Positions 19,368-63,289 of a stretch of 64,000 nt of DNA are shown here, in pieces (the first letter of the stretch is position 1; the number at the start of each line of letters is the position of its first letter). The translations under genes and the position numbers were made by a program. The DNA is from Raillietiella orientalis. Lineage: Eukaryota. Below the pieces are notes generated by a model, which was not told the origin of the DNA, ran no database searches, and saw only the letters and a list, made by a program, of their open reading frames with translations. The stretch spans positions 186,001 to 250,000 of the forward strand of contig JAYWIR010000038.1 of the NCBI GenBank assembly GCA_036172245.1. Direction: 5' to 3'.

Positions 19368-22300
19368 AGAATTCAGGATTGAGGCAGAAAGGCATTTGGA
19401 AACTCCAGGCAGCACGGCAAGACTTTGACGGTTGCCATTCATCGCTCGCTATGAAATTCGCGATTCGATCACGGATTATGTAAAGACATGCAGTCCAAAG
19501 AATCAATGAGCTCATCCCCACCCTGCTCCTGGAACCCCAAGAGATTTTCTCAGTGCCCAATCTCAGTGCTGTCACCTAAGAAAAAAAAAAAAAAGCTTTG
19601 GCTAAGCTAACGGCGATTCATAGATGAATCACAGATGTCAACTTTGAGTAAGAACCGTCCGCAGTACTTCTGAATTTCCAAACCGTTTCGATTTTGATGC
19701 GGATTCGGGTGTTTTCAGGAACATCCGAATCCACCTGAGATTCACAAGATGAAATCTGTGCTGCCTGCAGATTTCGTCAGAATCATCACAGAGTGATTTC
19801 CGTTACTGATTCAGTAACTCGAAAAAATCTCGTTTTCAGTTGATTACTTTCACATGGAATGAAATCGTAGTGGAAGCATCTAAAATAGCTGATGACTTCG
19901 ATGCTAGCAGCCGACCTGCGTCACGGAAAATTAGGGATGGAGCGTTTCTTCCTTGCGTTCCATTTGTGCGATCGTTTTCCACTTGCCATTTCTGATTCGA
20001 CCTCGTTTGGTTTCCCAGACTCAGGTGGTCAGAAATGTTTCCAAATTCGCGATGATAAATTACGATCGGCGAATCCCAAGATTGAGATCAGTAACTGCAG
20101 GTAGCCTTAGTGCTTTCGTTTTCCTTCGTATATTTGATATTCAAGCATTTCAATATGGAAAAGGCATGCAAATGTTTGATTAGATTAGATTTAGATCCCA
20201 GAGGAAAAATCAAGGGATGGAAACCGGAGTGCCGCCTTCAATCCTTGTTTGCTCTCCAAATAAAAATTGCATCTCGAAGGAGAATTTCAGACTGCTTCAA
20301 AGACATCTGGAAGTAATTTGATTATGGGTTTCAAAGACATGAGGCATAATCTAATCATAGATCCCATAGATATCGGGGGGGACTAGGGCAAAACCCCTCT
20401 CCAGTGAGTGAGGTGAACCGAATGTTCTGCCGTACGAAGTGACGAATTTTCGATCCCATCTCTGTTTTCACGGACTTTGGATCGGGCGACTCGTTGAGAG
20501 AGCAGCAAGCTGAATCTAAACGAGCAGCCTCCGTGTGCACCGAAGAGGGAAAAAGAAAGCGGAGCGGGGAAACTGCACGCGCACAGAGAAAAATTTGCTC
20601 AACTTTCAGCAACAGAAACGGCCGTCATCTGAAAAATCAAGGTGGCCTCAGAGATGGAAACAGCAAAAAGGGGATCACACAGTTAAACCATTGATCACAA
20701 TCTCAGGGATCACAGTTACGCGTCGTTCCGTGAAGGAAAAAAACGCTCGTAATCCTTCCGAAGAGTTTGGTTCTATGAAGCAGGCAGCTGGTATGAGCCT
20801 TCAGGAGACATCAAGACGGTGTGAAACAGGTACAAAAGGGAAAAAAAAGATCATCTTGTTTTCGAAGGTATCACTATGAAACCAAGTCTTGTGGTTCCAA
20901 AGATTCTTTGTCTGATGTTAACTTATCTTCTGTGGGTGGATGGAATTTAGATTTGTTATTTTTCCTTATTTTGTAATGTACTATTGCAGAGTGGTGGCAA
21001 AGCCCTTTTCTCGTTCTGTAAATGAACAAAGTCTCACGGACTCTTCGAGGGGCGTCACAGAAATATTTCCGAGATTATGATCTTGATACGAATCTTCACT
21101 GTAACAAACAGAAGGTTTATCACAACATACTTTTCTCATATTTTCATCAACTGAATCCTGAGAAGAACCTGAGACTCTTCGAATCTCTTTTGCAAATGGG
21201 AATTCCACTCGCAAAGACAAACTTCCAATTCAACTAATCAGGTGATTTTTAATTAATTATTGGAACAATAAGTTAGAGATGTATCCTTATGTATCAATCT
21301 TTTATTTGCATTTTTTTTTTTTTTTTTTTATCGATTACTACCGGGGTTCATCATGCATGAAAATTACACTGTTTATGCCTTGCATATCTTCCATTAGCAT
21401 TTTAAGCGCCATGCTAGAGTGTGTTTGCACTCGAGCCCGTTGAGAATCATTAGAGTGGAGAATAAATTTGCAAAAACGACAAAAAAAGTTCCCGAATTTC
21501 GAGCCTTCACGTACGCGATCATTAGAAGCTCGAAAATATGTAAGGGAGCAACTCATCCACGTATCCTTAGTGATTGCAGAGAGCACGCAGCTTGTGTTTT
21601 CATAACGCAATACTTCTTTATGAGAACATTTTATGCTTTCTATGCACACAATTAAGAAATTATTGGCCAATGGAAGGATTCTCTCCGACAGAAAATAAGC
21701 GATTTAAAAAAGCTGCAACGGTTCATTACCGGGATGTGTTCTCAGCTTCCGGGAACATCGGTTTAGCTAGAACCCAAAGAATTTCCACTGTTGGCCACAT
21801 CCTCTAGTTGGCCACACACCTGCCGCCTTCCTCGATTCGAACGCTACTCTTATTTACCACTACATCCCGCCTAGCGAAAATACGTCACTTATCGAATGAA
21901 AGGTTCAAAAGAAATGTCTGAGCCAATATGAGACATAGTGTGAACTACGCTCATCGTAAAATATGAAACAGTGTGAGTCTGGAGTCACGTGGGATCGGCC
22001 ACAGCACTTGAACGTCCCTATGAGGTTTCCAGCACGCAGAGGAAGGAGAACGGTGGTTTGATTCTGGGAAAGAGAAAGTGTGATGGTTCATCTGTTGAAC
22101 AAAGAGAACATACGGAGACTGCGAAATAGCTACCGAAACGGAAGGATGATGAAACCAGGTGCATATGAGATGACGCAGGAAAATAAATACAGAAGAAAAC
22201 CCTTGCCAAGAGAGGAAAATGCCAACACATTGGCTGTACAGAAAACAGAACTTGAGTACAGTACAGAGGTTTGTTTGGAGGGCGACAGGGCATTAATTGG

Positions 22301-29000: not shown

Positions 29001-29951
29001 TCATCAACAGCCACTTAAAATGGAAGTTGAAATTCATAGATCGTATTGCGTTACGGATGATTCTTCCATATTCACGGAAGACGGTTTCACGCATGAGCTC
29101 CCAGTTCATCCTAGTTCATAAGTTTCGTGACATCCTCCAGCTTTTCTTGGATCTTTTCTATCATGTAGACACTTTCCAACACTTTCTAAAATTCGAGAAG
29201 CTACTTTGGATTCTCTCAAAGGAAAATAACTCTTCGAAGATGTAATGGAGGGGCGACTGGAAGGTTTCTGTCCCTTGGTTACGAACAGAGTTCGCTCCAA
29301 GAACTCCGACACGAGAACTTCCAGAACGCAAAGCGAAATCGCTTCGGCGGAGCCTTTTGTATGCCAAATTGTCCCGAGGCGAGAAAAGTGCCAGTTCGGA
29401 GCAGAGGCTCTCGGGTTCCCATGGAATGCGTTTCCATGCATATTCCGATCGATACGAAAAGTGATTCCTCTTCTGATGCGATAGAAGAATGACGAAATCA
29501 CCCGCCAGGATGTCGATGCCGCCTTACTACCTGGAAGGACCTTCCTTCCTTCGCAGCGAATTGTCCCTCGCTGTCTTCTTGTTTTCTGGAACGTCAACGA
29601 GAAAGGATGCGGGGGAATTTCGCTCGTCGCCTGTTGGCAGGGGCTCTAGGCAAAGTGGGAAACTTGAGGTGAAATTTCCCATTTTGGGCTGCACGCATTT
29701 TTGTAGCTTCGTGTCTAATGAACACCTTCCGAGTATACATCCTTTCATACCCTGATATCACCTAGTGATCAGGGAGCATCAGATCTTGTGTTAATTTTTG
29801 GACGCGGGCGCCGTGGAAGAATAGAATCAGCTAAAGACGACTCGCATCCACATGACCCTTTGGCGGGTATTTGCTCCAAGTTGGCAACCTGAGGCGCAAG
29901 AAAAGCGACACGGCGGGAGCGGCGATGCTCGTTCGGAAACACACAGATAAG

Positions 29952-30902
29952 AGGGAAAATGCTGCGGATGCTGCTCCAAACGGGGTGTGCATCTCCGCGA
30001 AACCACCATTCCATCGCTTTGCCGCGTGGTGGTGGTGAGGGTTGCGCTCCTCCGAAGGCGAAATGATTCCCATTCCCTTTTCGCTTCGGTTCCCTGCTGA
30101 AGTGATTCGAAAGCCCCGAGATGACGAGAAGTCAATTGCAATGGAAGCATTGTGTTTCCATGGAATTTTTTAGTAACGCCAACCGATGTGAAATCAAGAA
30201 GCTTTGAACGGCCAAATCCCACCCTGATTCCTGGAAGGACCCGGAGGTCGACTCCCATTTGTCCCGGCCCTCATCGGGGGGCATCCGGTTTGAACCGCTA
30301 CCAGTGCCTCACCCGGATGAATGCCGGCCAACCAGCGTCATCTTGCGGGGTGAACTCGGAACCCACGGCGCGTGGTGTGGTGCCACGCGCGGAGGCCACC
30401 GTAACCACGCGGCCTCCGACGCGGGCAAAGTTTGACGCAAAGGTTGCTGAAAAAGAATTGTGCAACAACAGTTTGCTCAATTCGGTTTGCAAAACCGTGA
30501 AATTGAGACACGAAGGATATGCTTTCACACGATTTTCACTAAAGGCTTGCAAATGCAGGGAGAAGTTCCCAAAAGGGATAACGGCATCTTGTTTTGACAG
30601 AAGGATTGCACAATCCCAGCCTTCGGTAGGTGCCGTTAGGAAAGGGTTCGATTCGAAGGCAGAATCACTGCTGGAGATACAAAACGAGCCAAGCAAACCA
30701 CGTTAATAGCATCTAAATCCTCATTCTCATCATCTCGGGACTTTTCGAAACACTTCAGCAGGGGACCGAAGCGAAAAGGGAATGGGAATCATTTCGCCTT
30801 CGGAGGAGCGCAACCCTCACCACCACCACGCGGCAAAGTGATGGAATGGTGGTTTCGCGGAGATACGCATCCTGTTTGGAGCAGCATCCGCAGCATTTCC
30901 CT
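29952..30902. repeat. ~180-bp inverted repeat (29952-30130 / 30724-30902) with ~590-bp spacer
   Basis: Arms are reverse complements with about 10 differences; the spacer contains SINE copy C. Confidence 0.95.
30225..30426 (-). mobile_element. SINE-like element copy C (head fragment lacking the first T-arm module)
   Basis: Matches the 5' ~200 nt of copy D, including a similar internal deletion. Confidence 0.9.
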
Positions 30903-32199
30903 TCAGTCGAATCAAATCACTTAAAGCAACCTTTTCCGGGGAAAGTGCCGACACCGATAAGCAGCCAACAGGCAAAACGCCCTTGAAACCAACCGCCATC
31001 ATGAATTCTTCCAAGCATCCTAAAGCGCTACACGGAAACGGTACAGAATACAATTCTGCGACGCCCGTGTGTGGGGAAAAAAAAAAAAAAAAACGAAAGA
31101 AAGAAGAAATGGGGCTGCTTGCCTCTGAATTTTAGACTAGCACGAAAAAACTCTCTTTGATCCCGGCTCCATTATGTGTCATGCACTCCGGTTACTTGAA
31201 AGAATGGGATTGCGCCGCCTCGCACTTTGTTTTCTAGAGCAGGTTTGGCAGGTTCGGCCTACAACGGGAAACACTACAAACCTGAGCCACATATTTCACG
31301 GTTATCTGCAGGGTGGACACGGAACACTGCAACGGCGGTTCGCCTGGCGTCCAGGGACTGCCCCCGTCTCCGGGAAACGGCGCTTCCAGAAGTATCGGTG
31401 CCAACAATGACCCGGGAGGAAAAAGGGGGGGGGGGGAAGGCGTCTAATTTTATCGCTCGCATTGTTGGCTCGGTGCGTTTCCATGCCTCCTGCTGCTGCG
31501 TCAGGAGGTCCGTCCACTCCAGCGATCGGAACGCACCCACGGTCCTCCATCTCAAGATCCCTCCTGGTGGCGCGCGTCACCTGCCACCAGTGGCTCCTGC
31601 CGGAAATGTGCGACGCGTTTCCCAGGCGACGGCGACGGATTCCAGCGACACCTGGAAACGAAGGCTCCGTCGAAAGTCTTTCCTTCGGGTTTCGTGCACC
31701 GAAAACAACGGTGGTGGTGGTCGCAAGTCTTCGCGCTGCCTGCTGCTGGACCCGTCTGCCTCCCGTGTGGCCCGCAGCTCCGGGCTCAAACAGGAATCGC
31801 CGTCTCTGGATCGTAAAACACGTGGGAACACTGAACACAACGATATGCTTTCCTGCACCCAGAAAAAAAAAGGAAAACCGAGCCAGAGCTTGAAAACACA
31901 AATCTATTTAGTTTAAATAACGCCGCTTAATGAATCCAAATCGAAACCAATAACAGTATGCATGCAAACACACATTGCATAGTGAGCAGGGAGGCAGTCA
32001 TGGATATGATTGGATTTGCGGAATCCTCGAGATGCACACGAACACGGCAAGATTGCTGCCAGCAAAGAGCAAAGGGAACACCTTTTTCTTCTTCCTTCCA
32101 TGAAAAAGTAATGCCACATGCATTAAGAGGTGCGTGGGCACACACACTTCATAATTTTTCAATACTCATGCCAGATGGTGCATTCTCCCGCGTGTTGCT

Positions 32200-32962: not shown

Positions 32963-33725
32963 CCGCGTCGGAGGCCGCGTGGTTACGGTGGTCTCCGCAC
33001 GTGGCACCACCAAGCGCCGTGGGTTCCGAGTTCACCCCACAAGATGACGCTGGTTGGCCTACATTCATCCGGGTGCGGCACTGGTAGCGGTTCAAACCGG
33101 ATGCCCCCGATGAGGGCCGGGACAAATGGGAGTCGGCCTCCGGGTCCTTCCAGGAATCACGGAGTGAGAGCCCCCCTCCGGTGGTGAAGGAGTGGACCCC
33201 TCATTCCGGAGGGACCCTCCGCGTCGTACTGATGGAGAAGGTGTGTCGCCACCACCTCTCCAGAGAGTGCAGAGAAGCGAGCCGATTCCTTCGGGGGAGC
33301 TGCGTCCTTCTGGATTTCGGAAGCGCCCCCTCTAAGTTCTCTTCAGAGGAGTAAAAACAGGAGCGGATCCCTTGCGGGGATCCCTTCGGAGAAGAAAAAA
33401 TGAAGCGGATCCCTCCGAGGGTCCTCCGGAGAGAATAAGGGAGAAGGATTTCTTTCTGGACTCCCGTTCGGAGACAACCAGGGTGGAGTGATCTCCATTT
33501 CCGGGGATCCCTCCCCATGCATGAGAGGAACGGACTTCGAGTCCTTCCTGGGCAGACCTTCCCGGGGTACCCCCTATCTTAAAGAATCACCCACCCTCGG
33601 GTGGCGTGGAACCGTGTTGAAGAACTGCGAAGACAGAAAAGAAGGATTTCCATCATCCTAAAGGCCAGTAGCGACCGGCGCCCCACGTGGCTGGTGCCAC
33701 GTGGTGCGTTTCTACAAAAAGAAAG
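32963..33725 (+). mobile_element. SINE-like element copy D (near full length, A-rich tail)
   Basis: Reverse complement of B/E; ends ...GATTTCCATCATCCTA...TTTCTACAAAAAGAAAG. Confidence 0.9.
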
Positions 33726-34691: not shown

Positions 34692-35386
34692 TCGACACGG
34701 TTCCACGCCACCCAAGAGTGAATAATTCTTCAAGATACGGGGTACCCCGGGAGGGGTCCGCCCAGGAAGGACTCGGAGTCCGTTCCTCACATGCATGGGG
34801 AGGGATCCCCGGAAATGGAGATCACTCCACCCTGGTTGTCTCCGAACGGGAGTCCAGAAAGAAATCCTTCTCCCTTATTCTCTCCGGAGGACCCTCGGAG
34901 GGATCCGCTTCATTTTTTCTTCTCCGAAGGGATCCCCGCAAGGGATCGGCCCCTGTTTTTACTCCTCTGAAGAGAACTTAAAGGGGGCGCTTCCGAGATC
35001 CAGAAGGACGCAGCTTCCCCGAAGGGATCGGCTCGCTTCTCTGCACTCACTGGAGAGGTGGTGGCGACACACACCTTCTCCATCAGTACGACGCGGAGGG
35101 TCCCTCCGGAATGAGGGGTCCACTCCTTCACCACCGGAGGGGGGCTCTCACTCCGTGATTCCTGGAAGGACCCGGAGGCCGACTCCCATTTGTCCCGGCC
35201 CTCATCGGGGGCATCCGGTTTGAACCGCTACCAGTGCCGCACCCGGATGAATGTAGGCCAACCAGCGTCATCTTGTGGGGTGAACTCGGAACCCACGACG
35301 CACTGGCCCGTCGATTCCTTCAGAGTATTCGAACCACGACGCTTGGTGGTGCCACGCGTGGAGACCAGCGTAACTACACGACCTCC
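34692..35386 (-). mobile_element. SINE-like element copy E with 13-bp TSD
   Basis: GACCCTTAGTTGA at 34679-34691 and 35387-35399 flanks the copy. Confidence 0.92.
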
Positions 35387-36239
35387 GACCCTTAGTTGAG
35401 AGGAAATCCGGAAGCCAGGTAGAAGAAGAAGCCTGATGCAACGGCGGGCGACTGGCAGCGCCTCACCTCGGACGGCGAATTTCTACTGTCCTGCGCACGT
35501 CCCGCGAATGAAAGGGCAGGGTGGGCACAGGCGACTGCATGGGACCTATTTGGGAAGCGCACTCGATCCTCACTGGAAAGGTGCATCGTGTGGCTTCGGT
35601 CTTGCGCTCTTGAAGTTGGGCGTCGTTCGTACTGAATGCCTACTGGACCTACTGAACAAGGTCACGGGATCCGAAAGGTGAAATCTGTTGGCGGCTGGCA
35701 CGACCATGTGGGAAACAGAGTTACCACCGGATACTGGGGATGACCTGCTGATGTTTTGATACGGAGGTATCCTGAGTGGCTCCCGACTAGAACACTCGAG
35801 GGTCAGCAGGCAAGAGGAGCTCTGCAAGGCCCGCGGAGATGGGGAAAACCGTGCTCCACGTTTTCGCCTGCCCGACACCGTGCCAGGATTGGACAAGGCT
35901 GAAGGCGGTGACCGGCCTGAAGACGAGCACGAAGATAGAGATCCTGGCGGGAATGTTTGAAGGGGATGGGAACGTTCCCCTGATTCAGTCCCATGGTTCG
36001 CACCACCATTGCCCTGTTCATCACGAGCATAAGAAGGGCAAGGATGAGACGGAGAGACGGAGCCTGCCACGACCATCGTCCAAGGAATCACCTTGGATTT
36101 CAGATTCATGTTCACAGTCAAAAACTGCCAACATAAATTGTAATGGTAAGAAAAAAAAAAAAGCCCGATTAACCTTCCACTTTTCATATGAGCGCTTTGC
36201 GCTTTCTGCTATCCTCTGTCTTCCTTTTTTCGATATCAT

Positions 36240-42639: not shown

Positions 42640-44050
42640 CTCTCAGAGGGGTGCCGACCCATGTTCCCTCGTTTCGCGCCGGATTTGCTCCGACTGAGGT
42701 CGCTGCGAGGCGGGGCGCCGGGGTGCTCGCCTGCCGCTCGCTGCTCGAGAAGACCGCGGTCGCCTCGCGCGCTTTTGCGGAATCGCCTGGGAATTCTCCG
42801 GAGAAAACCCACCCTCCAGTATCTCAGGCCTCAACTCCTGCCCCTCCCTTTCCCCTTGATGGATGTTCCCGACCCGATTCGGTGTCTCTGAGAGATTCCG
42901 GGAGCAGCATCGGAAAAGCGTTCCTTGGGAGTGGGCGCACCTGCCGGGCGGAGTGGAGCGTGCCGTGTACGCGCAAGCGATGACGTCAGCAGACGACGAG
43001 CGCTCCGAGGAAACCTTCGGAAGACCTACTGGAACTTCTCCGCTGGTTTCGGAATCCCAACGAGAGCCGTTCCCCATGAGATTTTGGATCGCGCGAAGCT
43101 GCTTATCCAGATGTGGTTGCCGCCAGATGGAAAGAGGAGAGGCACGTTCTGATACCGTCGGAGGCAGAGATGCAGACGCCGCGCCGTTTCCCCGCGACCG
43201 ACGTCGCTGAAGTGAGTCCACCGAGGGCCGTGGGTGCCCCGTTGGTTGGGGAGCCGCGGAGTTCAAGCCTCGTCCGGCGAGACTTGGGCAGCAATTTCGG
43301 TGCTCCTCGGATGCGAGGCCACTCGAAAAAACGTTTAGGGCGGAGACGTTGCGTCGGGGCGTCTGGTGAGAGCAAACTGGTGCGTCGGCCCGAACGGGCT
43401 TTTCAGTTTCAACTCGGAGTGCGACCAGAGTGAGCCCAGGGCCCGGCGCGTATCGAACCTGGGAACAGCAGGCGAGGATCCTGCTGGCGAAGATTCCTGT
43501 CCGGGATCGATGTTGGCTCCAGTAACCAGGGACACGGGCCCTTCGAAAGTTGAAGCGTCCGGTAGGGGGGGAGGAGCCTCTCGCTGCAATCTCTGGAACG
43601 GAAATGCCCGTGTAACCCTTCCTTAGGAAGAGTCCTCCAACCAAGACTTGCCGGAAATGCTCGCGTGTTCGCCCATCCGGTCGGGTGCGGATTGGCCCCT
43701 GAGGCAGGTAGCGCTTCCTCGACCTTTGCGTTGCTTGTTGCTTCTGCTGTGTAAAAATAAACGCCCCGAGGGACCCGGGTGAGGATGCGCTTCCTGTTTC
43801 TCCTGCCGAGCGCAGCTTCGGGGACCCCCCGGGAGACGCGCCGGCGAAAGCGGCGGTGCCCCTAGGCGATTGGGTGCGACCCTGGAGATCTTCCTCGCCT
43901 TCTCGAGGCAAGCAGACCCACCCCGTGAGTCTGCCAAGACACCGGAGTGTGCACCCGCGGAGGTGTCCGATCTGGTCCAGTCTGGATGCCTCGCTCGCCG
44001 TGCTGCCATGGAAACGACCATCGACTTCGTTCCGTTCGCACCCCTCGGCG
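42640..44050 (-). mobile_element. GC-rich decayed ORF1-like sequence (downstream half of the target split by the 44051-46741 insertion); includes a short plus-strand L1 3' end at ~43620-43785
   Basis: The frame continues across the TSD (..RKSSPRG|ANGTKSM..); AATAAA-CGC-CCCGA-GGGAC-CCGGG at 43756-43779. Confidence 0.45.
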
Positions 44051-45730
44051 TTGCCACCCGGGTACGCCGGGGCGTTTATTCAAATTCTCTTACAAATGTG
44101 GTACTAGACCCCACTACAGCCAACACAACTCTGGACCTGCCGGGTCGCCGGTACGCAGACCGGCATGACTCTCCTCGGCAGTGGAAGGGGATGGAGAAAA
44201 AACAAAAAGAAAAAAAAAAGACTTTGGAGGGCCGGGAAAGGATCACTGGACACTGGGAGGAAGGTCCATCCTTTGCAGTATGCCCTCGAGGTCCTTCTGC
44301 ATTTTACCCAGGTGGGGCCATCGGGTTGTTCTCCGCAGGAAGCGAACTGCATCCTCGATGACGTCCGATGACGTTGGCATCTTCATCGTCGGCTTCACTC
44401 CAGGCCGCCGCAAGCCCACGGATGCAGCAAAGTGCTGCCAGGGTTGCGGCTGGCTGCAGGACGTCCCGCACGAAGAGAAGCCGAAAAAGGTCCCTGGGGG
44501 TGTTGCCAACCGGGATCCGTATGGAGGTAGCAAAATGTTCCCACAAGGGCCGGAGGGCAGCGCAGTCCACTAACAGGTGGGGGAGGGATTCCTTCTCCCC
44601 GCACACTGCACAGTTCTGTCCTACCTTCTCCAACGTCCAGTGATGGCGGCACGCGTTGCAGGGAAGACCCCAGTGCAGCAGCAGCAGCGCCGTTCCCTGC
44701 CACTTGAGGGGGAGGGTGGACGTATCTGTAAATACCGGGAGCCACTTTAGGTCATCCAGCGGGATGCCCAGCAGCTCGCCCCGTCTACGAATTCCTCGCG
44801 GGAGGACGCTCAGGATTTCGGTGTCAGCCAGTTCCCTCGTGGTCCAGCCGCTCATCATCTGCTCCCTGCCCGCTATCCGGCAGGAGACTTGCCACCTCGA
44901 CGTTCGGCTGCTGCCGAGCGCCCTCCTCAGGAAGGGCAGCGCCGTGGACAGTGGGTCGTCTCCGCCCACGTGCTTCTGGCGGGACACTCGAGCATGTTCC
45001 GCAGCGTGCAGCAGGCGTAGATGCCGGATCGCAGAGAGTTCCAGGATTCACCTCCGGACTGGTTGAGCTTCGTCCACGTGTCAACTGTTTCTTCCAGCTA
45101 TGCGCTGGAGTTGGCGGGGCTGCAGGCCATCCATCCGTTCTCCTTTGCCAGGGTGGCCATGCGTCCGAGGAGGAGGCCGTATCTTATTTTCCGTCCCGGG
45201 CACAGAAGAAAAGACGCGAGTCCTTCGGTCCCGGACACACGCCTGGCGAGGAGGCGGGCTGGAACGCACCAAGGGGTGCTCCACATCTTCGCTGCGATGG
45301 CCATGGTGCGCCATCGCAGCTGTATCTCCACGCGCTTTAGCGTCAGGAGGCTAAGACCGCCGTCCCGACGCGGAGCGCACAAGTCCTTCAGAGGCACTCG
45401 GGGCCTCCCCTTGCCCCAAAGGGCGATGCAGGGGAGGTCCTTGGTCCTTTTCTTCACAACGACGGGGACGGGCAAACAAAAAGTAGGGGGCGCAGGATGG
45501 GGGTCGCAAACGCGTTCCAAACCGCGGCCCGTTCCGGCACCTGTTTCGCGTATCAGCAAAGTGAGTTCATTACCAGGGGGGAAGCTCTGCTGAGAAGCAT
45601 TGAAAAAACTCCGCGGGCAGGCCGTCCTCCCCTGGTGCCTTACACCTCTTGAGCCCTTTAATCCCGGCGAGAATCTCACCGGTCTCAAAGGTCGTAAAGG
45701 TCGTAATAATCTCGTCGAGGCTATCCTTCT
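44051..45730 (-). pseudogene. L1/Tx1 ORF2 remnant: RT domain 0 fused to thumb and zf-RVT, then 3' UTR
   Basis: EILAGIKGLKRCKAPGEDGLPAEFF (~45690-45600); ALWGKGRPRV..LCAPRRDGGLSL; HWGLPCN...CAVCGEKESLPHLLVDCAALRPLW; AATAAA at 44080-44075 plus hairpin. Confidence 0.92.
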
Positions 45731-45734
45731 CCTC

Positions 45735-46741
45735 GGCCTAGGATGATGGAAATCCTTGGGTTCTCCTTTTTCTTCCGTTTTCGCTGTTTTCCTTCTAGCT
45801 TTTTTCGTATTTTTTAAGAGTTTTCTTTTTTTTGGTTCGCTAAGTACCTCAGAGCCGGTCGCGTGCCTCGCGGCGCACGTGGCTCTTTTAAACACTGTTT
45901 TGGTTCCACGCCTCTCCTCTGCGACAACCCCGCAGGGGGGCGTGTAATTCTTTAGTGTAATTCTTCAGGATAGGGGGCACCCCGGGATGGGGGTCCGCCC
46001 TATGAATCCAGGAAGGGCTCGGAGTCGTTCCTCTCACGCTTGGGGAGGAATTACCCCCGGACGGGGGATCGCACCTCCCACCCTCGTTGTCTCCGAAGGG
46101 GAACCCCAAAGGGAATCTCCTTCCTTATTCTCTCCAGAGGGAACCCCTCTCCATTTCATCTTCTCCGAAGGGAACCCGGAAAGGATCCGCTAGTAGGAAT
46201 TTCTTCTCCGGAGGGAACCCGCAAGGGAACCGCTCCTGTTTACCCCTCTGAAGAGAACCCCGAAGGGACGCTTCCGAAACTCAGAAGAGGCGCTGCAGCT
46301 TCCCACAGGGAATCGCTTTCGCTTGCTTCCTTGTGCACTCTGTGAAGAGGCGACGACTCGGAGGGACCCCCCAACAGGGGGAGTCCGCTCCTTTTAACAA
46401 CTAGAGAGGTGCCCCTGAGGGCTCCTGCTCCATCTTGAAACCGGAAGGGTCCCCCCGGTGAGGGGGGTCCGCTCTCTGTTGCATGACAGGAGGGGGAACT
46501 CCCCACTCCTTTATTCCTGGGAAGACCCGAAGGTCAATTTCCCTTTGTTCCGGCCTTCATCGGGGACTTCCGGTTTGAACCTCTATCGGTGCCGCGCCCG
46601 AATGTTTGTAGGCCAACCAGCGCCATCTTGCAGGAGAAACTCGGAACCCAACGATGCAGTGGCGTCCGTTTCTGCCGGAGTATTCGGACCCGCGACTCAT
46701 GTGCCACGCGCGGAAGCCTTAACCACAAAACCTCTGACGCG
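45735..46741 (-). mobile_element. SINE-like element copy F (diverged, five internal modules)
   Basis: Collinear with B/D/E from the head (GCGTCAGAGG..GTGGTTAAGG) to AAGGATTTCCATCATCCTA. Confidence 0.85.
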
Positions 46742-46751
46742 CCCCTCGGCG

Positions 46752-49150
46752 AGGACTTCCTCTCCGCCGGGGTGAACGTGGGCGGCGGCGGAGGAGGCTG
46801 CGCCCTCAGGGACGGGAGGTCTTCGCTGGGGCGCTCCGGTTCCACAGTGCCGCTCCCCGAGGGACTCTCCTGCCGCATCTTCGGGCTCGGTGGCCGACTC
46901 GCCACAGGCAATGCCCCGCCACGTGCAGGTACAGCGGCGGCTGCCAGGATGGGGGAGAGAAAAGGGGCTGCGGTCGGTATCCTGGAAAGCCACCGGCAGT
47001 CGGCATAGCCTGTGTGTATGGCGAGGGCGGCGGAAGGGTCCAGTAGGGGAACACAGGAAAGACTTCAAATGCCTGCGGGAGATCAGGGCCCGAACCGGTG
47101 CCAGAGCGGCCACCACCAACAGCCTGCGGTCCGTTCCCTCCTCTCTTTCTCCGCTCCGTCCCCTTAGGATTCGGGCCGACGTATGCCGGCCCTTCGACTC
47201 TGCTATTTGCGTTCCCCTACTAGAAGAGAACGGCCTGGAGGCCCCGGGCGAGCAGGTCACGCGGGGACGCTCCCCGTGGGACCGCGTGCTAGAAGAAGCG
47301 GTCAGGGTGCGAGTGGGTTAGAAGGGGCGGGACCTTCCTCCACAGTAAGGTCTGCGGCGGGCGGCCGCCCTGCTCCGGGAGGCGTCCTGGGGGCGCGCCT
47401 GCTCACGAGCGGCTTGCCCGGAGGGGTGACGAGTGGGGTGGGGTGGGGGCGGTAAACGAAGCCAACGAAAGGAACAGCAGCAGCCGAAGCATTTTCGGGA
47501 GGGCCGGGAGCTCAGGGAAGGCTCTGTGGCATCCTGCCCGGGGCGCAGTCGAGCTCCCCCTTGCAGAGTGTGAGAGTGCAGCCATCTTGTCTCCACCCTC
47601 AGGAAGGGGGATGCTGTACGATCTCCTCCCTCCTCCGTGCGCCGACACGCACGGAGGGAGGGGGAGCGTGTAGGCGCTCCTTTCCAGCCTCCCTCTGGAG
47701 GATTGGAGGGCTGCGGCGAAACGCTCCCGCGCGCTCTGGAGTGCAACGCGCTCGCTAGGCTGGGAAGGCCCTCCTCCCGGGGACAAACTGTCCCACGGTC
47801 CGGTGGAGGCAAGGCATGTCGTGAGGGATGGCCCGAGGCAGAGGTTGCAGCGCCGAGTGCTGCCACCTCCAGGGGAGGCGCGGAGCTTACCGGGGGAGGT
47901 CGGCGGGAACCTCGGTGTTCCAGGTGGAACCGCGCGGCGGAGAGGCCCCTCGAAGGGCCCGTGGAACGGACAGAGGCATCCTGCTAGATGCGCTGGAGCT
48001 CTCTCCCCTCCATCTTGCGGCGTGACTGCGCCAACGGCTCCAGGGGAGCTGCTGCTCTGTAACGGTTGTCGGAAGCGCGCCACTTTGCAGCGAGGATCGA
48101 GTGGTTGCTTGGCGATGGTTGGATTCTCTCTTGCCCCGTGGAGGCAGAGTTGGGTCGACCAGGCTGGTCTTCGTGGGTTCCCGTTCTTTTGGGCCGGCGG
48201 CCCATCAGAGAGGAGGTTCTCGCGCTGCCGCCGGCCCCTCCCCGTCGTCCCCGCCTGAAGGTGGCCCTCGAACGTAGTCCGGTCGAGCTCGGGCTCGGTC
48301 GAGTCAGCCTTTGGCTTCAGTCAGAGCGTGCTAGTCCTGTTCCCGCGTCCCGAACGACGAGCGGACGTGGGGGACAGCCGTTCCCTCAAGGGTTCGCCAG
48401 CCAAGGGACGCGCGAGCTCTCGGTGGTTAGAAAACACCCACATACAAGAAGCGACGGTTGTACCGGCAATCGTCTCAAGTCTCCGCATCTCTGTGTTCTA
48501 GATGAGGCGCAGTCCTTCGAACGGCCCCATCTGGGAAGAGGTTCCCGACTGGCGTGCTGAGGCCACCCCTGCTTCCGTTTGGGTGGGTGGGTGGGGGCAA
48601 CCCACGCTGCTGGAGGGGAAGGACCAGCTGAATCCTCAACGGCCCGGGCGTCTCCAGAAAGATGACCGGCGTCTTCTTTCCCGATCTCGCGGGAGGCGGG
48701 AGCGGCGGTGCGGTACTCCAAAAGTGTCCTCTGGTGCGGCGGCGCCACTGGCAGGAGTTGCCACGGCTCACCCAAGGGCGCCGGAGGACAGGCGAGGGAA
48801 CGATCCCGCTTGTCCTATGTCCGTCTCCCGGCAGCCTCGGGCTGGCGACTCTCCCGAGGCAGATCGTCAGCCGCCGCGCCCTTCCGGAAAGCGCACCAGA
48901 TCGGAGCCTTCGGCTTTCGAGGACCGTGCTCTTTCTCCGGTCTCTTACGGCCGCTGGGGACCGGCATCCGCGGGTGCATGGAGCCCCTTGGATTTCCCTC
49001 AGGCAAGTGACCACTTTTTTGGGGAGGGGCTCTCAGAAGTACTCAAAAACCGCTGCTCTACCCTCCAGGCATCGTAGCGGCTACGACAACGCATAAGGGG
49101 GCTCACAGGGCCCTCTTCCACCGCCCGCACCCCAAGTGAGCTCCAAGTGC
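46752..49150 (-). mobile_element. GC-rich decayed L1/Tx1 ORF1-like region
   Basis: Pro/Arg-rich broken frames with Cys/His clusters near 48400-49000; no intact ORF. Confidence 0.4.
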
Positions 49151-49410: not shown

Positions 49411-49599
49411 GGACAGAACGAAGTGGTTCCGTCTGGTCTCCACCGTCCCCTGCCTCAACGCCGTCTGCCCCGAGGGAGAGCAACGACAGACTCCAAGCGG
49501 CAGGGCGGGACTTCTGCACTGTCGCCTCAGGGGTTACGAAACTTCCGGGCTACGAGCGAGCTGGTGGACGCCGCCGCTGATCCGCATTCCCGGGCAGTG

Positions 49600-50240
49600 C
49601 CATCCGGTCACCCCGGGTGTTTATTAAAACTCTTCTATACGTTTGTGGTACAAGGCCCCACTACGGTCAAGACATCATGGGACCTGTCGGGTCGCAGATA
49701 CGCAGACCGACTCTCCTCTCCTCGGCAGCGGAGGAAAATGGGGAAAAACAAGAAAAATAAAACAAAAATTAAAAAAAGAAAGAATTTGGAGGACCGGGAA
49801 AGGATCACCGTCCTCTGGGTGGAGGGTTCATCCTTTTCAGGATGCCGTCGAGGTCCATCCGAATGTTTCCCAAGTGAGGCCACCGTGTAGCAATCCTCAG
49901 GAAGCGGACTGCAAACTCTATGAGGTCCCTTTCGTTGCTTCCTCCGCTTGCGTCTCTCCATGCTGCTACAATCCCCTCGGACGCAGCAAAGCGATGCCAG
50001 GGTTGCGGCTGGTCGCAGAGCGTCCTGCAGCAGGAAGAGGAGCCGAAAAACGTCCCTGGGAGGGCAGCCAACTGGGATCCGGAGGGTCGTCAAGAAACGT
50101 TCCCACAAGGGCCGGAGGGCAACGCAGTCCACTAACAAGTGGGGGAGGGATTTCCTTTCCCCACACCTGGCGGCAGTTCGGGTTCATCCTCCCCAACGTC
50201 CAGTGGTGGCGGCGCGCATTGCAGGGGAGACCCTAGTGCA
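49600..50240 (-). mobile_element. L1/Tx1 3' fragment (zf-RVT to terminal hairpin)
   Basis: LVDCVALRPLWERF; close paralog of 44051-44680; AATAAA at 49625-49620 plus CCCGG-GGTGA-CCGGA. Confidence 0.9.
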
Positions 50241-50244
50241 ACAC

Positions 50245-50553
50245 CCGCGTGACAGCCGCTCACATGAGGAAGGCTGAGGGGTGACCTCATCTGAAAGAGG
50301 AAGTCAAGACGGAGATCGCCGGCATCCAGCTCCGGTTATAGGAGCAGAGAGCGCCGAAACCGGCGACTTCCACCCGTCCCCTCCCACCCCTTGTCTATCT
50401 ATTGCCTCTCACCTCCACCCGTTCCGTTCTTCCAGCGGAGACTCTTCCCTTGGCGTTATCCTCCCCTTGGGCTTTTTTTCTTTTCCTTTGGAACCCTGTT
50501 CTCGGCTCGATGTTACTTTCGAAAAAAACGTCCCGGCATGACCGGGTAAAAAA
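50245..50553 (+). mobile_element. L1/Tx1 3' fragment (ORF2 C-terminus, 3' UTR, hairpin)
   Basis: Homologous to 11810-11900 and the reverse complement of 39750-39830; ends CCCGG-CATGA-CCGGG-TAAAAAA. Confidence 0.75.
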
Positions 50554-55050: not shown

Positions 55051-56569
55051 CAGGAGCGCGCCGTGCTGCGGTCCCGCCCGCGCCGAGGCCAGGTCGACCC
55101 AGGGTCAGGACGGCCAAGGGGAATCGAGGTCCGCAGCTCCAGAAGAAGGAAAGTGGGGTCTTCCTCCTCCCCTCCTCCTGACACCACTTTCCAGACCACC
55201 TCCTGCAGCAGCGACACCTGTCCCGCCTCCCTGTGGCGGTCCCGCTCGGTTTTGACGAGAGCCCCAGGGTGGTCGCGAGCGCGGACTATTGCCCCTGCCA
55301 GTTGCCCCTCTCGTGCTCCCGCGGGCAGTTAAGGGAGCCACGTGGCATTCATGGAAGCGCCCAGAGGTACTGACCAGAGACCTCCGTTGCGGTCCTGCTC
55401 CCCAGGCGACTCCTTCCATCCGCAAAGGACCGTCATTCCTCCAGGGGCAGAGGAGAGGCCAGCTTCAACATGGCAACCCCGACGCCGCCCACCGGGCAGC
55501 GCGAAGCCGCGACGGCACTTCCCGGAGTCTGCTGGTTCTTATTGGAAGGTGGATGGTTCATTCGCGCAGGACGCTGCGTTGCCAGGACGCCGTGCTGTCA
55601 TCCCGGAGTCCCTGTGGCGCACGCGACCTTTTCCTTGCCCTGCCGCTCGTGAACCCTCGGGCGGTGCACTGGGGCGGGAAAGGAGCCCTCCCCCTAAGGG
55701 AGGAAGGACGCGCGTCCACTCCATGAGATGAAGCTGCGACCTCCACATTCCTGAGCGAGGCGAGGACCCTCCAGCTGGGGCGGACTCGCTACACTCGGTC
55801 GCCTTCCTACCCGGAGGGGGAACGCCTCCCGGCAGCGGAGAAGGGATCGAACGAAGGAGGCAGAAAGCACCGGCGGATCCAGCGGGGAGAACAGGCTGGA
55901 CAGGAGGCAAAGGGGAGGCGCCCCAGGGGGAGGAGTCCTTCCAGGCGGGTCTCCGAGACATCCGGAGGCGCCTCCCGGAATGCATCCGGAAGGCGCCTCC
56001 AAGAGGCTGTCGGAACCCGTTCGGCCTACCCGCTGAGCCCGAATGGATTACGGCCGTGCGTCCTCCGCGTGAGCGGCACCACAGAACGTCGCGGGTTCGA
56101 ATCCCGCACGGGAAGAAAGGTCGACTCCGAGAACGGGAGCGCATTGTGTGGGCTTCGAGTCCCTCTCCCCTGCCTGGTGACGCTGGTCAGTCTCTTCGAG
56201 GGAGGCGTTGGTGGAATCCGGAAACTCCCGGATGCCCCCGTTAACTGGCCGGTAGTGGAAGTCGACTTCTCCCCTCAAGGGCCTTCCGGGACATCAGGGA
56301 GTCCTTCATGGTTTCCCTCCGGTTGTGCAAATGGAGTCTTCCACCCCCTTGGGGGAGACCCTCCATCGTATACCTTGGAGCTGGTTAGTACCTCTCTAGA
56401 GTGCAAGAAGCGTGCTGCTCCCTTCGGGATTCTGTTCATAGGAGGAGAGAACAAAGAGCCGTTCCCTTGCTGGTTCCCTCTGAGCAGGAAACGAGGAGCG
56501 ACCCACTCCGAGGAGGTCCTCTGCAGAGAGAACGAGGAATAGGTTCTCTTGGAGTACAACCAGGGCGGA

Positions 56570-57893
56570 GGGTTCCAGGGTTGCCCTGGTGGCGAATATA
56601 TGGAGCATCAGCTAGTGTGAAACTGCACGATACCTTGTCAAGCGAGCCACCGGCTGTTCTCGTTCCTGGCGCGACGACACGGGCGCAACGTGTCCAGCTG
56701 CGGAATGGAGCTCCGGCGAGTGTCCAAGCTGACCAGGACCAACAACTGGATCTCCTGCCGGCCCACGAACGGTAGTGCCTGGCTGCAGGAAACAGTGAGC
56801 ACGTGGACCAAGATGAGCAAAGAGAGTCTGGAGATGCGGCAGCGACTGCTGCATTCCTTCTAAAACTACCGCTCGCTGAAGGACTCATCGTGCAGCCCAC
56901 CCCGTGTGCGTGGGCGCAAAAAAAATCCCTAGCCACGGCATTGTCCTACCTCAAAGAGCACATGGGCAATAACCAGACGGTCAAATGGGAGGTCAGTTCC
57001 CAAATCAGTCACAAGACGAGAGAATTTGGTGGTTGAATCACAGGCCAGCTCATGGATGCTGAAACCCCAAGTACCCCACCGAAAGGACTACTGCGCTGGG
57101 GTGAGCTGCTGGGAATCCCACAGGAAGTACTCGAGTGGCCCCATGCGCTGAAGAACAACCGGGCCTTCCCCCTGAAGTGACAGGGGTCGGCACTTCTGCT
57201 GTTGCACCGGGGACTCCCTTGCGACGCCCGCCGCTCTCACTGCACCCGAGAGGCTGCGGACCCCAACTGTTACAGCTGCAAGGAACGGGAATCCCAGCTC
57301 CCGCATCTGCTTGTGGACTGTGTCGCCCTCCGGTCCCTGTGGTCGCGTTACGCAACGTCCCTTGGTGCACCGACGGACAATCCTAGGGACGTGGTGAAGC
57401 GCCTCTTCGTGCGCGACGCCCTTTCGTCTGCGCATCCCAGCATCTCTTTGATGCTGCCTACGCGGGATTGTGGCGGCCTGGAGCTACGCGGGATTGTGGC
57501 GGCCTGGAGCTACGCAAGAGTAGGACGGCGTGATAGGATGCCATCTGCTTCGTCCTCCCCTTCCTGCGGACGGCAGTCAGATGGGACAGGTAGGAGTATG
57601 CGCCAGGTAGGAACCTGACGCATACTCGGGTGGAACTTGCCAGCATCCTCGAAAGGATGCAGAAGACGTCCTCTAGCACCAGTGATCCCTTGCCTAAGCC
57701 TCCCAACTTTCTGTATATATTTTTTCGTTTTATTTTTATTTCTGTTTGCCCCTCTGCTGCCAAGGAGGACCCCGCCGGCCTGCGAGCCGGTTACTCGGAA
57801 GTTTCTAAGCATTTTCGGACAATGTAGGGCCGATGGCCCTACACATGTATTTTTATTTTTTATAATAAACTTCCCGGAGTGACCGGGTGATAA
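56570..57893 (+). mobile_element. 5'-truncated L1/Tx1 element with 12-bp TSD
   Basis: HRGLPCD...CYSCKERESQLPHLLVDCVALRSLW; ends AATAAA-CTT-CCCGG-AGTGA-CCGGG-TGATAA; TSD AACCAGGGCGGA at 56558-56569 and 57894-57905. Confidence 0.93.
57458..57515. repeat. Perfect 26-nt tandem duplication inside the L1
   Basis: ctacgcgggattgtggcggcctggag x2.2. Confidence 0.9.
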
Positions 57894-58566
57894 AACCAGG
57901 GCGGAAAGTTCTCTTTGGGGATTCCTACCAAGCGTGAGAGTAAAGCGCACTCCTTCCTCCGGAGCCTTCCTAGATTCGTAGGGCGATCCCTCCGGGGACA
58001 CCCTCTAACTCGTACAGTCAGCATGCACCTCCCGGGTAGCGTGGACGCTGTCCAAGAGCTCTTTCCTCCGGAGTCTTCCTAGATTCATAGGGTAATTCCT
58101 CCGGAGCCACACCTCTACGTTGAAGAGTCAGCACCCATCCTAGGGTGGAGTGGGCGTTGTTAAAGAAGAGCTCCGTAAGCCCTCCCTGAGGAAGCGAGCC
58201 CGGCGGTTCTTCAGCACCCCTTGAGGACCAAAAAAAAAGAAAAGAAAAGCCGGACGGAAGCTGCGAAACCGGAAGAACCCCCAAGGATTCCCATCGCCAC
58301 GTCCCCGCGAGGTCGCAGCTGGACTTTTCAGAAGAAAAAGAAAAGAATGCGTTCCGGTCGAGGGGAGCATTTCGCTCCGCACCGATGAGGATGATCTTTC
58401 CGGACGGAGGAAAGGATAGCTGCCGTGACGCTCCAGTACCTCCAGCATCTGGTCCGAACCGTCAGCTCATGGGACGACTTACCGCTCGAGCCTGCGCATG
58501 GAACCGACGTCCTCGTGTCCGCCATGGCGCCACCAGAGTGCGACTGGAAGAAGGTAGAGCCGAGGA

Positions 58567-58735
58567 TAACCGCTACCAGTGCCGCGCCCGGCCACCCGGC
58601 CGCGTCATCGCGCTGAGGGAACGCGAGTCTGCTAAGCACCCGCCGTTCTCGGCGTCGATTCTTTCAGAGTATTCGAACCCGTGACGCTTGGTGGTGCCAG
58701 AGACCTCAGCAGCCACATGGCTTCCCACGCGGGCG
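58567..58735 (-). mobile_element. SINE-like element copy H (head only)
   Basis: GCCCGCGTGGGAAGCC...GGCACCACCAAGCGTCACGGGTTCGAATACTCTGAA...GGCACTGGTAGCGGTT. Confidence 0.8.
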
Positions 58736-62424: not shown

Positions 62425-63289
62425 CCTCAAGCTGATAAGAACAGGGACGCGGATTCGGTGGTCTTCTCTTTTCCCTTGCTGGCTCTCCAATTTCTGTAGA
62501 ATCGTCCACCTTTTCAGGGAGGTCTTACGCAGTTCCTCTTTAACGCTGTCCGCGCCATCCGAGGGTGCGTGTGACTCTTCAAGGTATGGGGTGCCCCGGG
62601 AAGGGATCACCCTATGCATCCAAGAAGGCTCCAGAGGAAGGAGTCCGTTCCTCTCTTACGCTTGGGAGGGAACTCTGAAGGGAACCTCCTCTTCCTTGTT
62701 CTTTCCTGGAGAGGTCCCAGGAGGGGGTCTCTCATTTTATTCTCCGAAGAAGACCCAGAAAAAATCCGCTTTTAAAATTTCTTTCTCCGGAGGGAGCCCT
62801 CAAGGGATTCGCTCCTGGTTTCCTCCTCTAAAGAGAATCTTGAAGAAGCGCTTCCAATTTCTCAGAAGGACGCACCCCCAAAGGGAGCAACGCTCTTGAC
62901 ACTTTGGAGAGGCAGCCCTCGAGGGGGTATCAACCAGCTCCATGATACGCGATGGAAGGTCCCCCCCCCAAGGGTGGAGGAGATTTCCTCTTCACCACCG
63001 AAGGGAAACCCCGGAAAGCTCCCCAATTCCCAGAAGAACCTCGGAGGGTCAAATTCCAGTCCCGTCCAGTCAACGGGGTCATCCGTTTTTTTTACCAGTG
63101 CCGCAGCAACCGAAGCCCGTGATTCGGCCAGCATCACTCTGCTGAGGGAAGGGTGTAACTCGAAACTCACGACGCACCCCTTCCCCCCCCCATTTCTCGG
63201 AGGGTGGACCTTTCCTCCAATGGGATCCGAACCCGTGACTCTCGGTGCCACTAGCGGAGGCCGCAGCCACACAGCGCCGCGGACCGAAA
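62425..63289 (-). mobile_element. SINE-like element copy I (diverged, full length) with 10-bp TSD
   Basis: Head GGTCCGCGGCGCTGTGTGGCTGCGG...GGCACC..CACGGGTTCGGATCCC; collinear body; GATTCGGGGA at 62415-62424 and 63290-63299. Confidence 0.8.

Follow-up and report, generated by a model that had tools for sequence, protein, structure and literature searches.

A SINE-like repeat and a 3' half of an L1-like element without reverse transcriptase, enclosed by one target-site duplication in Raillietiella orientalis

When two unlike retroelements lie head to tail in a genome, did they arrive together or one after the other? This question is raised by a stretch of 64,000 nucleotides from Raillietiella orientalis (contig JAYWIR010000038.1 of assembly GCA_036172245.1, positions 186,001 to 250,000 of the forward strand), referred to here as the window, in which a long repeat resembling a short interspersed nuclear element (SINE) runs on the minus strand into the 3' half of an L1-like long interspersed nuclear element (LINE). 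An initial annotation of this DNA had described the compound as a tRNA-headed SINE fused to an L1 3' half devoid of reverse transcriptase (RT), and had proposed its insertion as one unit of 2.69 kb. We report here that a single, exact target-site duplication (TSD) encloses both parts, examine the make-up of each of them, and weigh the ways in which such a fusion could have come about.

One exact direct repeat at both ends of the insert

Read along the minus strand, the insert is bracketed by CGCCGAGGGG at 46751-46742 and again at 44050-44041; the bracketed DNA amounts to 2,691 bp. Exact copies of this 10-mer are present at only two sites on both strands of the 64-kb window, and these sites are the two ends of the insert; when up to two mismatches are allowed, the number of sites in the window rises to 122. 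Both ends had been set from homology to other copies of the respective elements, and the 10-mer was not used for this purpose. The 5' end of the SINE-like part, (C)GCGTCAGAGG at 46741/46740, was matched to the starts of the copies at 19.36, 32.97, and 35.39 kb, while the 3' end of the L1-like part (44051) was aligned, through sequence alignment and motif scans, with the last conserved bases of the L1 3' ends at 49.60 and 57.89 kb. The repeat copy at 46742-46751 adjoins the SINE head (GCGTCAGAGG...) to within one base, and the copy at 44041-44050 stands directly after the L1 terminus (...CCGGGTGGCAA, 44051). Exact 10-mer direct-repeat pairs that are 0.5-6 kb apart occur between 42 and 64 kb at a background rate of 3.7e-6 per position pair, and the chance of a 10-mer match at both ends, with a slack of ±2 nt at each of them, is about 9e-5. 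Since the pair is unique to the two ends, since these ends were set independently, and since the chance of such a match is so small, the 10-mer is a real TSD around the whole 2,691-bp insert. The exact 10-bp direct repeat originally reported at the SINE 5' end and after the L1 terminus is thereby borne out.

The region is rich in guanine and cytosine (GC) and dense in repeats, a setting that would favor a coincidental 10-mer match or a juxtaposition of the two parts produced by the assembly, with no single insertion at all. Against this stand the restriction of the exact 10-mer to the two ends, the low chance of such a pair, and the location of both repeat copies within 1 nt of ends that were defined by homology; we consider coincidence or artefact extremely improbable.

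The length of the focal TSD (10 bp) is the same as that at an independent L1 insertion at 56-58 kb, and this agreement supports a single insertion. At that locus (56044-58298, plus strand), a 5'-truncated L1 (56570-57895) splits a divergent SINE copy of the same orientation; the L1 lies between the two copies of a separate, exact 10-bp TSD, CCAGGGCGGA (56560-56569 and 57896-57905), and the SINE resumes after it. This is a textbook nested insertion, and its TSD indicates that the L1-like family makes 10-bp duplications. The idea that this SINE-L1 pair is another copy of the composite was rejected, given that the SINE continues after the L1 and that the TSD flanks the L1 alone. When the 3' flank of the focal insert was compared with SINE tails, scores of 19 and 15 were obtained against null means of 19.4 and 17.7, and hence no SINE continuation was detected in this flank. 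On this ground we rejected the possibility that, at the focal site, the L1 had inserted in situ into a SINE already resident there. Because one exact TSD brackets both parts and the 3' flank is free of a SINE continuation, a single integration is indicated: the SINE-like part and the RT-less L1 half most likely entered as one unit of 2.69 kb, just as had been proposed.

Make-up of the two parts

The SINE-like part (46741-45735, minus strand) is about 1 kb long and is oriented in sense with the L1-like part. Self-BLAST with the segment 45957-46741 uncovered eight other copies or fragments of this repeat in the window, nine in all (Table 1). The repeat has the hallmarks of a SINE in that it is dispersed (nine copies or fragments), non-coding (no Pfam domain), and flanked by a TSD, a clean one of 13 nt in the case of the 35-kb copy; this TSD of its own implies that solo SINE copies transpose on their own. 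With 0.7-1.0 kb, the copies are long for a SINE. Three of the eight other copies are 93-96% alike, and the focal SINE is only 68-81% like any other copy in the window (68% over 45957-46350, relative to the copies at 19, 33, and 35 kb), so that it represents a different, older subfamily. A modular body in an element of about 1 kb, as initially described, was recovered: a unit of about 33 nt (repeat family D1) is present in five copies in the focal SINE body, and Tandem Repeats Finder (TRF) detected no tandem array in it.

At both ends the focal SINE appears to be complete, or nearly so, because its 5' end is that of three other copies and its 3' module reaches the point at which copies diverge. 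The 19-mer AAGGATTTCCATCATCCTA (45739-45757), which is followed by GGCC, is identical in the 33-kb copy (33.6 kb), and GGCC is also common to both. An alignment of the focal linker and CAAGGATTYCCATC with the tail of the 58.2-kb SINE attained a score of 40 (null maximum, 32), and the 18.6-kb copy matches the focal SINE as far as CCATCA. Past the 3' module, three independent copies cease to resemble one another.

In many tRNA-derived SINEs the 3' tail comes from a LINE, and such SINEs and LINEs form pairs sharing their 3' ends. BLAST detected nothing similar to the L1 3' end in the 3' regions of the solo SINE copies, and motif scans of the window located the L1 terminal motif at none of their ends; a 3' tail shared with a partner LINE is hence missing from this repeat. 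A match of 13/15 noted by eye between the tail of the 33-kb SINE and the L1 3' untranslated region (UTR) lies within the estimated chance expectation, and with the BLAST search empty, we rejected an L1 origin of that tail. The notion that the SINE-like repeat is the L1's own 5' UTR was likewise rejected: solo copies exist with their own TSD and without L1 3' ends, and at 56-58 kb an L1 is located inside the SINE.

A scan for the B-box-like motif GGTTCGAANCC, which we take to be the consensus, gave seven sites at up to one mismatch. Six of them are distributed over five SINE heads, and one (63223) is close to the SINE fragment at 62.5 kb; the motif in the focal head is degenerate (two mismatches), and the 56.1-kb copy contains a perfect T-arm-like hairpin. 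An A-box match was present inside none of the SINE heads, ARAGORN predicted no tRNA in the 64-kb window, Rfam returned no tRNA match in the whole window or in three head-centered scans, and the predicted fold of the head had a z score of +0.69. Of the tRNA-like head, the B-box-like motif is therefore recovered in the SINE heads, but the tRNA and A-box searches came up empty; the label "tRNA-headed" would seem weakly supported, because it draws only on a B-box-like motif that is degenerate in the focal copy.

Runs of four or more T residues terminate transcription by RNA polymerase III (Pol III). On the sense strand, eight such runs are present in the L1 part and one in the focal SINE part (in the head, at 46730), while the four other SINE copies at 18.6, 33.0, 34.7, and 56-58 kb (3,059 nt together) contain none. 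The run-free copies would be compatible with Pol III transcription, which is weak evidence given that the copies are related to one another. With eight runs in the L1 part and one in the focal head, the whole SINE-L1 unit could not be a Pol III transcript, and these runs weaken the earlier suggestion that a Pol III-type promoter drives the composite.

The L1-like part extends from about 45728 to 44051 on the minus strand and comprises 1.7 kb of the second open reading frame (ORF2) and UTR. Its N-terminal peptide (45737-45570), corresponding to RT "domain 0", yielded five matches when the PDB was searched with phmmer, and all five are L1 ORF2p (E 0.0075-0.016); the peptide aligned to residues 454-489 (455-490 in some entries) of the full-length protein, a position just before the RT fingers. 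Only about 100 nt separate domain 0 from the post-RT segment, and hence about 0.8 kb of the RT core must be missing. None of the 29 sense-strand ORFs with at least 30 amino acids (aa) matched an RVT_1 or endonuclease family at E values up to 10, a finding that confirms the RT-less character of this L1 3' half, and the peptide of RT domain 1 (45457-45552) had no match in the PDB. The focal copy contains no ORF2 with both an APE endonuclease and an RT (RVT_1) domain; as it is itself a fragment, its clade is not decided thereby.

The order originally read from this part (RT domain 0, thumb, zinc finger) holds weakly for domain 0 and for the zinc finger. No tool lent support to the thumb, an assignment that goes back to motif resemblance only: PDB and Pfam gave no match, the Atlas was uninformative, and BLASTP returned an E value of 3.0 to a zf-RVT protein. 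For the ORF of 247 aa at 45047-44304, Pfam reported zf-RVT with an E value of 0.0012 and 19.9 bits, a score below the 27.5-bit cut-off. A phmmer search of 1.84 billion representatives with this ORF produced nine matches, seven of which are weak ones that carry zf-RVT above the cut-off; the other two are a low-complexity repeat protein (the best-scoring match) and a fragment of 87 aa (P0002) that is 62% identical to the C-terminus of the ORF. Among the named Atlas clusters for this C-terminal ORF, 27 of 30 are zf-RVT. The PDB contained no match for it, and word-index protein searches (with near and longer lengths for the C-terminal ORF and longer lengths for the domain-0 peptide) did not return a match either. 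With domain-0 matches at E 0.0075-0.016 and a zf-RVT score below the cut-off, an assignment to the L1 clade proper is tentative, and we speak of an L1-like part.

L1 elements typically end in a poly(A) or A-rich 3' tail. No such tail is present at any of the three L1 3' ends of the window; each of them stops at a conserved hairpin motif. Alignment and motif scans showed that the terminal motif of the 3' UTR is conserved in three L1 copies, and the 3' UTR and terminal motif that had been recorded at the L1 end are thus authentic features of the family. The terminal hairpin (4-5 bp) is conserved in sequence and no more stable than shuffled sequences (z -0.35). Besides the focal element, three other L1 3' fragments are present among the four L1 pieces of the 64-kb window; the focal L1 is 76% identical to 49598-50243 over 44052-44680, and 69% identical to 57098-57483 over 44398-44782. 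Two short sequences on the plus strand, 43742-43786 and 50510-50552, also end in an L1-type terminal motif (A-rich, AAAC, CCCG...CCGGGT; 43756-43778 and 50523-50545), and they have nothing besides this motif in common with the L1 3' UTR. They may be non-autonomous elements that borrowed only the roughly 30-nt end of the L1.

Table 1. Positions of the parts of the focal insert and of the other SINE copies in the 64-kb window
Feature	Position	Strand	Remarks
5' TSD CGCCGAGGGG	46742-46751	-	Exact; one of two occurrences in the window
SINE head	46620-46741	-	5' end as in other copies; degenerate B-box-like GGTCCGAATAC, second B-box-like segment, TTTT at 46730
Conserved SINE core	46446-46650	-	Best-kept block; 75-81% identity to five other copies, long invariant runs
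Modular SINE body	45886-46445	-	Repeated GC-rich hairpin-like units of about 33-43 nt, copy-specific insertions
SINE 3' module	45735-45885	-	GC hairpin 45851-45885, A-rich linker 45761-45833, conserved end, GGCC
Junction zone GGCCGAGGAG	45729-45738	-	8/10 like the TSD; SINE/L1 breakpoint within about 45728-45738
L1-like ORF2 fragment, RT "domain 0"	45570-45737	-	K-A-P-G-E-D-G...E-F-F; phmmer against PDB
Stops, frame change, scar of internal deletion	45450-45569	-	About 0.8 kb of RT core missing; exact breakpoint inferred
Post-RT ORF2 segment (initially "thumb")	45101-45449	-	Homologous to L1 copy at 56.6-56.8 kb
ORF2 C-terminal region	44243-45047	-	zf-RVT-like Cys/His finger 44541-44720, frameshift near 44390, stop 44243-44245
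L1 3' UTR	44051-44242	-	T-rich tract, then AATAAAC and short GC hairpin, TGGCAA at end; no poly(A)
3' TSD	44041-44050	-	Exact second copy of CGCCGAGGGG
SINE copy or fragment	9600-9956	-	Self-BLAST
SINE copy or fragment	18624-19364		Self-BLAST
SINE copy or fragment	30222-30424		Self-BLAST
SINE copy or fragment	32966-33666	+	Self-BLAST; head 32966-33030
SINE copy or fragment	34692-35389	-	Self-BLAST; head 35270-35389
SINE copy, interrupted	56044-56569 and 57906-58298	+	Divergent copy
SINE copy or fragment	58568-58729		Self-BLAST
SINE copy or fragment	62522-62884		Self-BLAST

A proposed chimeric cDNA and the alternatives to it

Any explanation of the locus has to start from what it displays directly: one exact TSD at independently set ends, a SINE that appears complete, the same orientation of both parts, and an L1 part from which the RT core is absent. 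Copies of two transcripts are fused head-to-tail on the minus strand, and a 5'-truncated LINE, starting at domain 0, ends at its own 3' terminus with the shared motif before the TSD; both are properties of chimeric insertions. We favor, with a probability of about 0.55, one LINE-mediated integration by target-primed reverse transcription of a chimeric complementary DNA (cDNA), generated through a template switch from an L1 RNA to a SINE RNA. Reverse transcription would have started on an L1-like RNA, at the conserved 3' terminus; this RNA would already have been without its RT core, or the core would have been skipped by an intramolecular jump. Synthesis would have proceeded back to the domain-0 region, where the enzyme would have changed over to a SINE RNA at its 3' end; the SINE RNA would have been copied to its 5' end, and second-strand processing would then have created the 10-bp TSD. 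In this account we infer the switch itself, the timing of the internal deletion, and the copy number; the deletion in the L1 may predate the event or may represent a second jump. Since the runs of four or more T residues are confined mostly to the L1 part, the RT would have joined two separately made RNAs, a Pol III transcript of the SINE and an RNA polymerase II (Pol II) transcript of the L1. Lacking an endonuclease and an RT core, and with its L1 part full of Pol III terminators, the product is most likely a dead-on-arrival chimera in single or low copy and not a self-propagating family. Fusions of this kind are an ordinary, already described by-product of LINE reverse transcription.

Several observations weigh against a template switch of this kind. 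The L1 part is broken by the internal deletion and at least three frame disruptions; the RNA of an active L1 would not look so at the time of insertion, and this state agrees equally well with later decay and with an origin from a non-coding family member or from a source copy that was already dead. The breakpoint on the L1 side is not fixable, and no other L1 copy of the window covers domain 0. The natural 3' end of the SINE is deduced from only three to four copies that are mutually different, and the 35-kb copy with its clean 13-nt TSD stops about 45 nt or more earlier. The copy number of the focal element is known for the 64-kb window only. Finally, exactly at the SINE/L1 junction, GGCCGAGGAG matches the TSD in eight of ten positions and is preceded by TCCT, an arrangement that mirrors TCCT and CGCCGAGGGG at the 5' flank; such a look-alike would be expected if two insertions had used the same target.

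Two independent insertions into the same target, with either element arriving before the other, would have generated the order TSD-SINE-TSD'-L1-TSD, with CGCCGAGGGG as the TSD and a middle copy that has since mutated. The mirrored TCCT and the high density of transposable elements, with adjacent insertions being common (56-58 kb, 9.4-9.9 kb), would agree with this scenario. However, the resemblance of GGCCGAGGAG to the TSD is weak: among 3114 null windows of 40 nt, 4.2% score as well, and a match with at most two mismatches is encountered about once per 450 nt on the same strand of the insert. The GGCC of GGCCGAGGAG is common to the 33-kb and 58-kb SINE copies and is thus probably SINE sequence, while its GAGGAG reads Glu-Glu in the domain-0 frame. 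Moreover, two substitutions and an indel would have to be assumed for the middle copy and none for the outer copies, and no common motif is evident among the three TSDs of the window, so that site specificity of the endonuclease is not apparent. Owing to this look-alike, separate TSDs for each part, which the initial annotation had named as a refuting observation, keep a small probability. We consider the re-use of one target very unlikely.

Instead of being created during reverse transcription, the fusion might have been present already in a single RNA, if the insert were a retrocopy of a read-through transcript that ran from a SINE to an L1 3' end. The source would be a nested locus in another part of the genome, with an L1 fragment lying within a SINE of like orientation or immediately behind it. 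A nested SINE-L1 locus with both elements in the same orientation is in fact present in the window (56044-58298), and the debris of the two families is dense, with nine SINE and four L1 pieces per 64 kb. At the focal junction, however, the SINE is joined essentially at its 3' end and at most about 6-10 nt of unassigned sequence lie between the two parts, whereas the TSD or flank of the source locus would be expected there. In addition, Pol III could not cross the L1 part, and an outside Pol II promoter would be needed. A read-through origin is in our view quite unlikely.

A further alternative is that the fusion belongs to a recurrent family of non-autonomous composites similar in type to SVA, LAVA, or MINE, whose members derive from a master copy, are probably transcribed by Pol II and not by Pol III, and are mobilized in trans time and again through the L1 3' terminus. 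The parts required for this are present (a 5' module that is conserved, together with the precise terminal motif of the L1 3' end), and coding capacity, dispensable for such an element, is lost here. The path from a chimera to a family is illustrated by MINE, for which 31 WEIRD-MGL copies are given in the Magnaporthe study (PMC2104539), and the short sequences ending in the L1-type motif at 43756-43778 and 50523-50545 suggest that trans-mobilization via this end does seem to occur. Against such a family stands the absence of the focal SINE-L1 junction from all eight other SINE copies or fragments and from all three other L1 3' fragments of the 64-kb window, as do the eight T-runs in the L1 part and the one in the head, which speak against the unit as a whole being transcribed by Pol III. 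Metagenome, genome, and viral collections contained no related DNA, which is weak evidence since these collections hardly cover eukaryotes: a 20-nt pattern of the SINE core hit 21 metagenome loci, each matching over only 20-23 nt as expected by chance, and a 26-nt pattern hit no genome contig and no viral contig. It is unlikely, in our estimate, that the locus belongs to a recurrent composite; we give the same low standing to the more specific proposal that the fusion founded, or is one member of, an independently arisen SVA- or MINE-like family that propagates in this GC-rich eukaryote, existing alongside short elements that carry only the terminal L1 hairpin of about 30 nt. In such a family the 5' module would come from a complete SINE, and the end recognized by the L1 machinery from an RT-less L1 3' half.

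The favored template switch has counterparts in other organisms. In humans, 113 chimeric Alu/L1 insertions are reported in a recent study, with 88.5% in sense orientation and the Alu mostly full-length (10.1101/2025.02.02.635956). As in these and the U6/L1 chimeras of mammals, which arise through template switching by L1 ORF2p or through the joining of RNAs, the focal insert has a full-length SINE in sense orientation on the 5' side of a 5'-truncated L1, and one TSD (10 bp here) encloses both. Unlike Alu/L1 chimeras, the focal element is without poly(A), its L1-like family ending in AATAAAC and a short hairpin; its L1 part also has an internal deletion of the RT core, and its SINE is about 1 kb long and of putative tRNA origin.

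In Magnaporthe, according to Gogvadze et al. (2007; PMC2104539), MINE (WEIRD-MGL), WEIRD-MgSINE, and tripartite WEIRD-MgSINE-MGL chimeras occur; the direct repeats that flank these chimeras and the mouse B2-U6-L1 measure 10-20 bp, with WEIRD-MgSINE-MGL and B2-U6-L1 described as enclosed by TSDs. For the chimera that unites a SINE with a 5'-truncated LINE, one or two jumps between templates are invoked. The same study lists Mg-SINE and MGL as a SINE/LINE pair with shared 3' ends (PMC2104539). The focal insert is likewise a non-mammalian chimera of a SINE and a 5'-truncated LINE between direct repeats, and it can even be read as tripartite (SINE, domain-0 piece, and 1.4 kb of L1 3' sequence). 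It differs in that its SINE is full length and placed at the 5' end, whereas the SINE described for Magnaporthe is 5'-truncated and situated between WEIRD and MGL, and in that one copy with the focal junction is present in the 64-kb window, as opposed to the 31-copy MINE family.

SVA and LAVA, according to two reports, are non-autonomous composites of hominoids that combine SINE-derived and other modules and are mobilized in trans by L1, with LAVA including an L1 fragment (PMC4432496, PMC7353768). These families are described as multi-copy, with a core of variable-number tandem repeats (VNTR) and a poly(A) tail, while the focal element has one known copy, no array by TRF, and no poly(A). With a canonical tRNA-derived SINE, the focal repeat has in common that it is dispersed and non-coding, with a B-box-like motif near the 5' end, a conserved core, and TSDs. 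In contrast to such a SINE, its L1 sequence consists of 1.7 kb of ORF2 and UTR and not of a short borrowed tail, the solo copies in the window do not end in the L1 terminal motif, and neither ARAGORN nor Rfam detected a tRNA.

If the fusion is a one-off, it would be a further example, outside mammals and fungi, of LINE reverse transcriptases joining unrelated RNAs. Its main use would then lie in the repeat annotation of this genome, which harbors an L1-like family that makes 10-bp TSDs and terminates in a hairpin motif instead of poly(A). Should the junction prove recurrent, it would capture how a composite non-autonomous retrotransposon is born when a SINE joins an RT-less LINE, and the portion of the L1 3' end required for trans-mobilization could then be studied in a natural system.

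Flanking reading frames and other repeats of the window

The frame in which the direct repeat reads Pro-Arg-Gly is open in both flanks of the insert (ORFs 46534-47064 and 43623-44075), so that excision of the insert together with one repeat copy joins two open frames. The initial annotation had taken this for the restoration of an in-frame target. The joined frame is arithmetically true, but a gene finds no support here: the 64-kb window contains 91 ORFs of at least 150 aa, Pfam gave no match for either flank ORF, and the downstream flank ORF crosses, in antisense, another L1-type 3' tail (43756-43778). For these reasons, the open flank frames cannot be taken to indicate a gene.

The window has the appearance of non-coding eukaryotic DNA that is rich in repeats. 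Of its 110 ORFs with at least 140 aa, 98 were scanned together with Pfam, and the 12 that lie in or overlap the insert were scanned separately; the 98 gave one match, an L1 fragment, and the only Pfam domains found in the scanned ORFs are zf-RVT fragments. No Rfam family reached its gathering score in the 64-kb window. Base composition is strongly heterogeneous, with 36% GC at 2-6 kb and 60-66% at 42-62 kb.

Some further observations concern the SINE family. The SINE heads (35270-35389, minus strand; 32966-33030, plus strand; 30360-30424) are characterized by two similar B-box-like segments about 50 nt apart; in the 33-kb and 30-kb heads the stretch between these segments is missing, as if deleted between the two repeats. 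The 19-kb copy is flanked by a direct repeat with 16 of 20 positions identical (18603-18622 and 19377-19396, minus strand), which starts right after ...CCATCAG; on the 5' side it stands upstream of the head, at a distance of 14 nt. A long, decayed TSD accompanied by additional 5' bases may account for this repeat. The 58-kb SINE carries a tandemly duplicated segment of about 108 nt (76% identity) in its tail (57950-58166, plus strand). On the plus strand, an L1 zinc-finger fragment (9435-9608) with 62% identity to the focal L1 adjoins a minus-strand SINE head fragment (9600-9956), and both are truncated at the same point; this arrangement suggests a rearrangement or a nested event. Lastly, two inverted repeats of 180 nt (29951-30130 and 30724-30904) that are 93% identical surround about 600 nt including the SINE fragment at 30222-30424, and this pair could be a foldback element, an element with terminal inverted repeats, or a local inversion-duplication.

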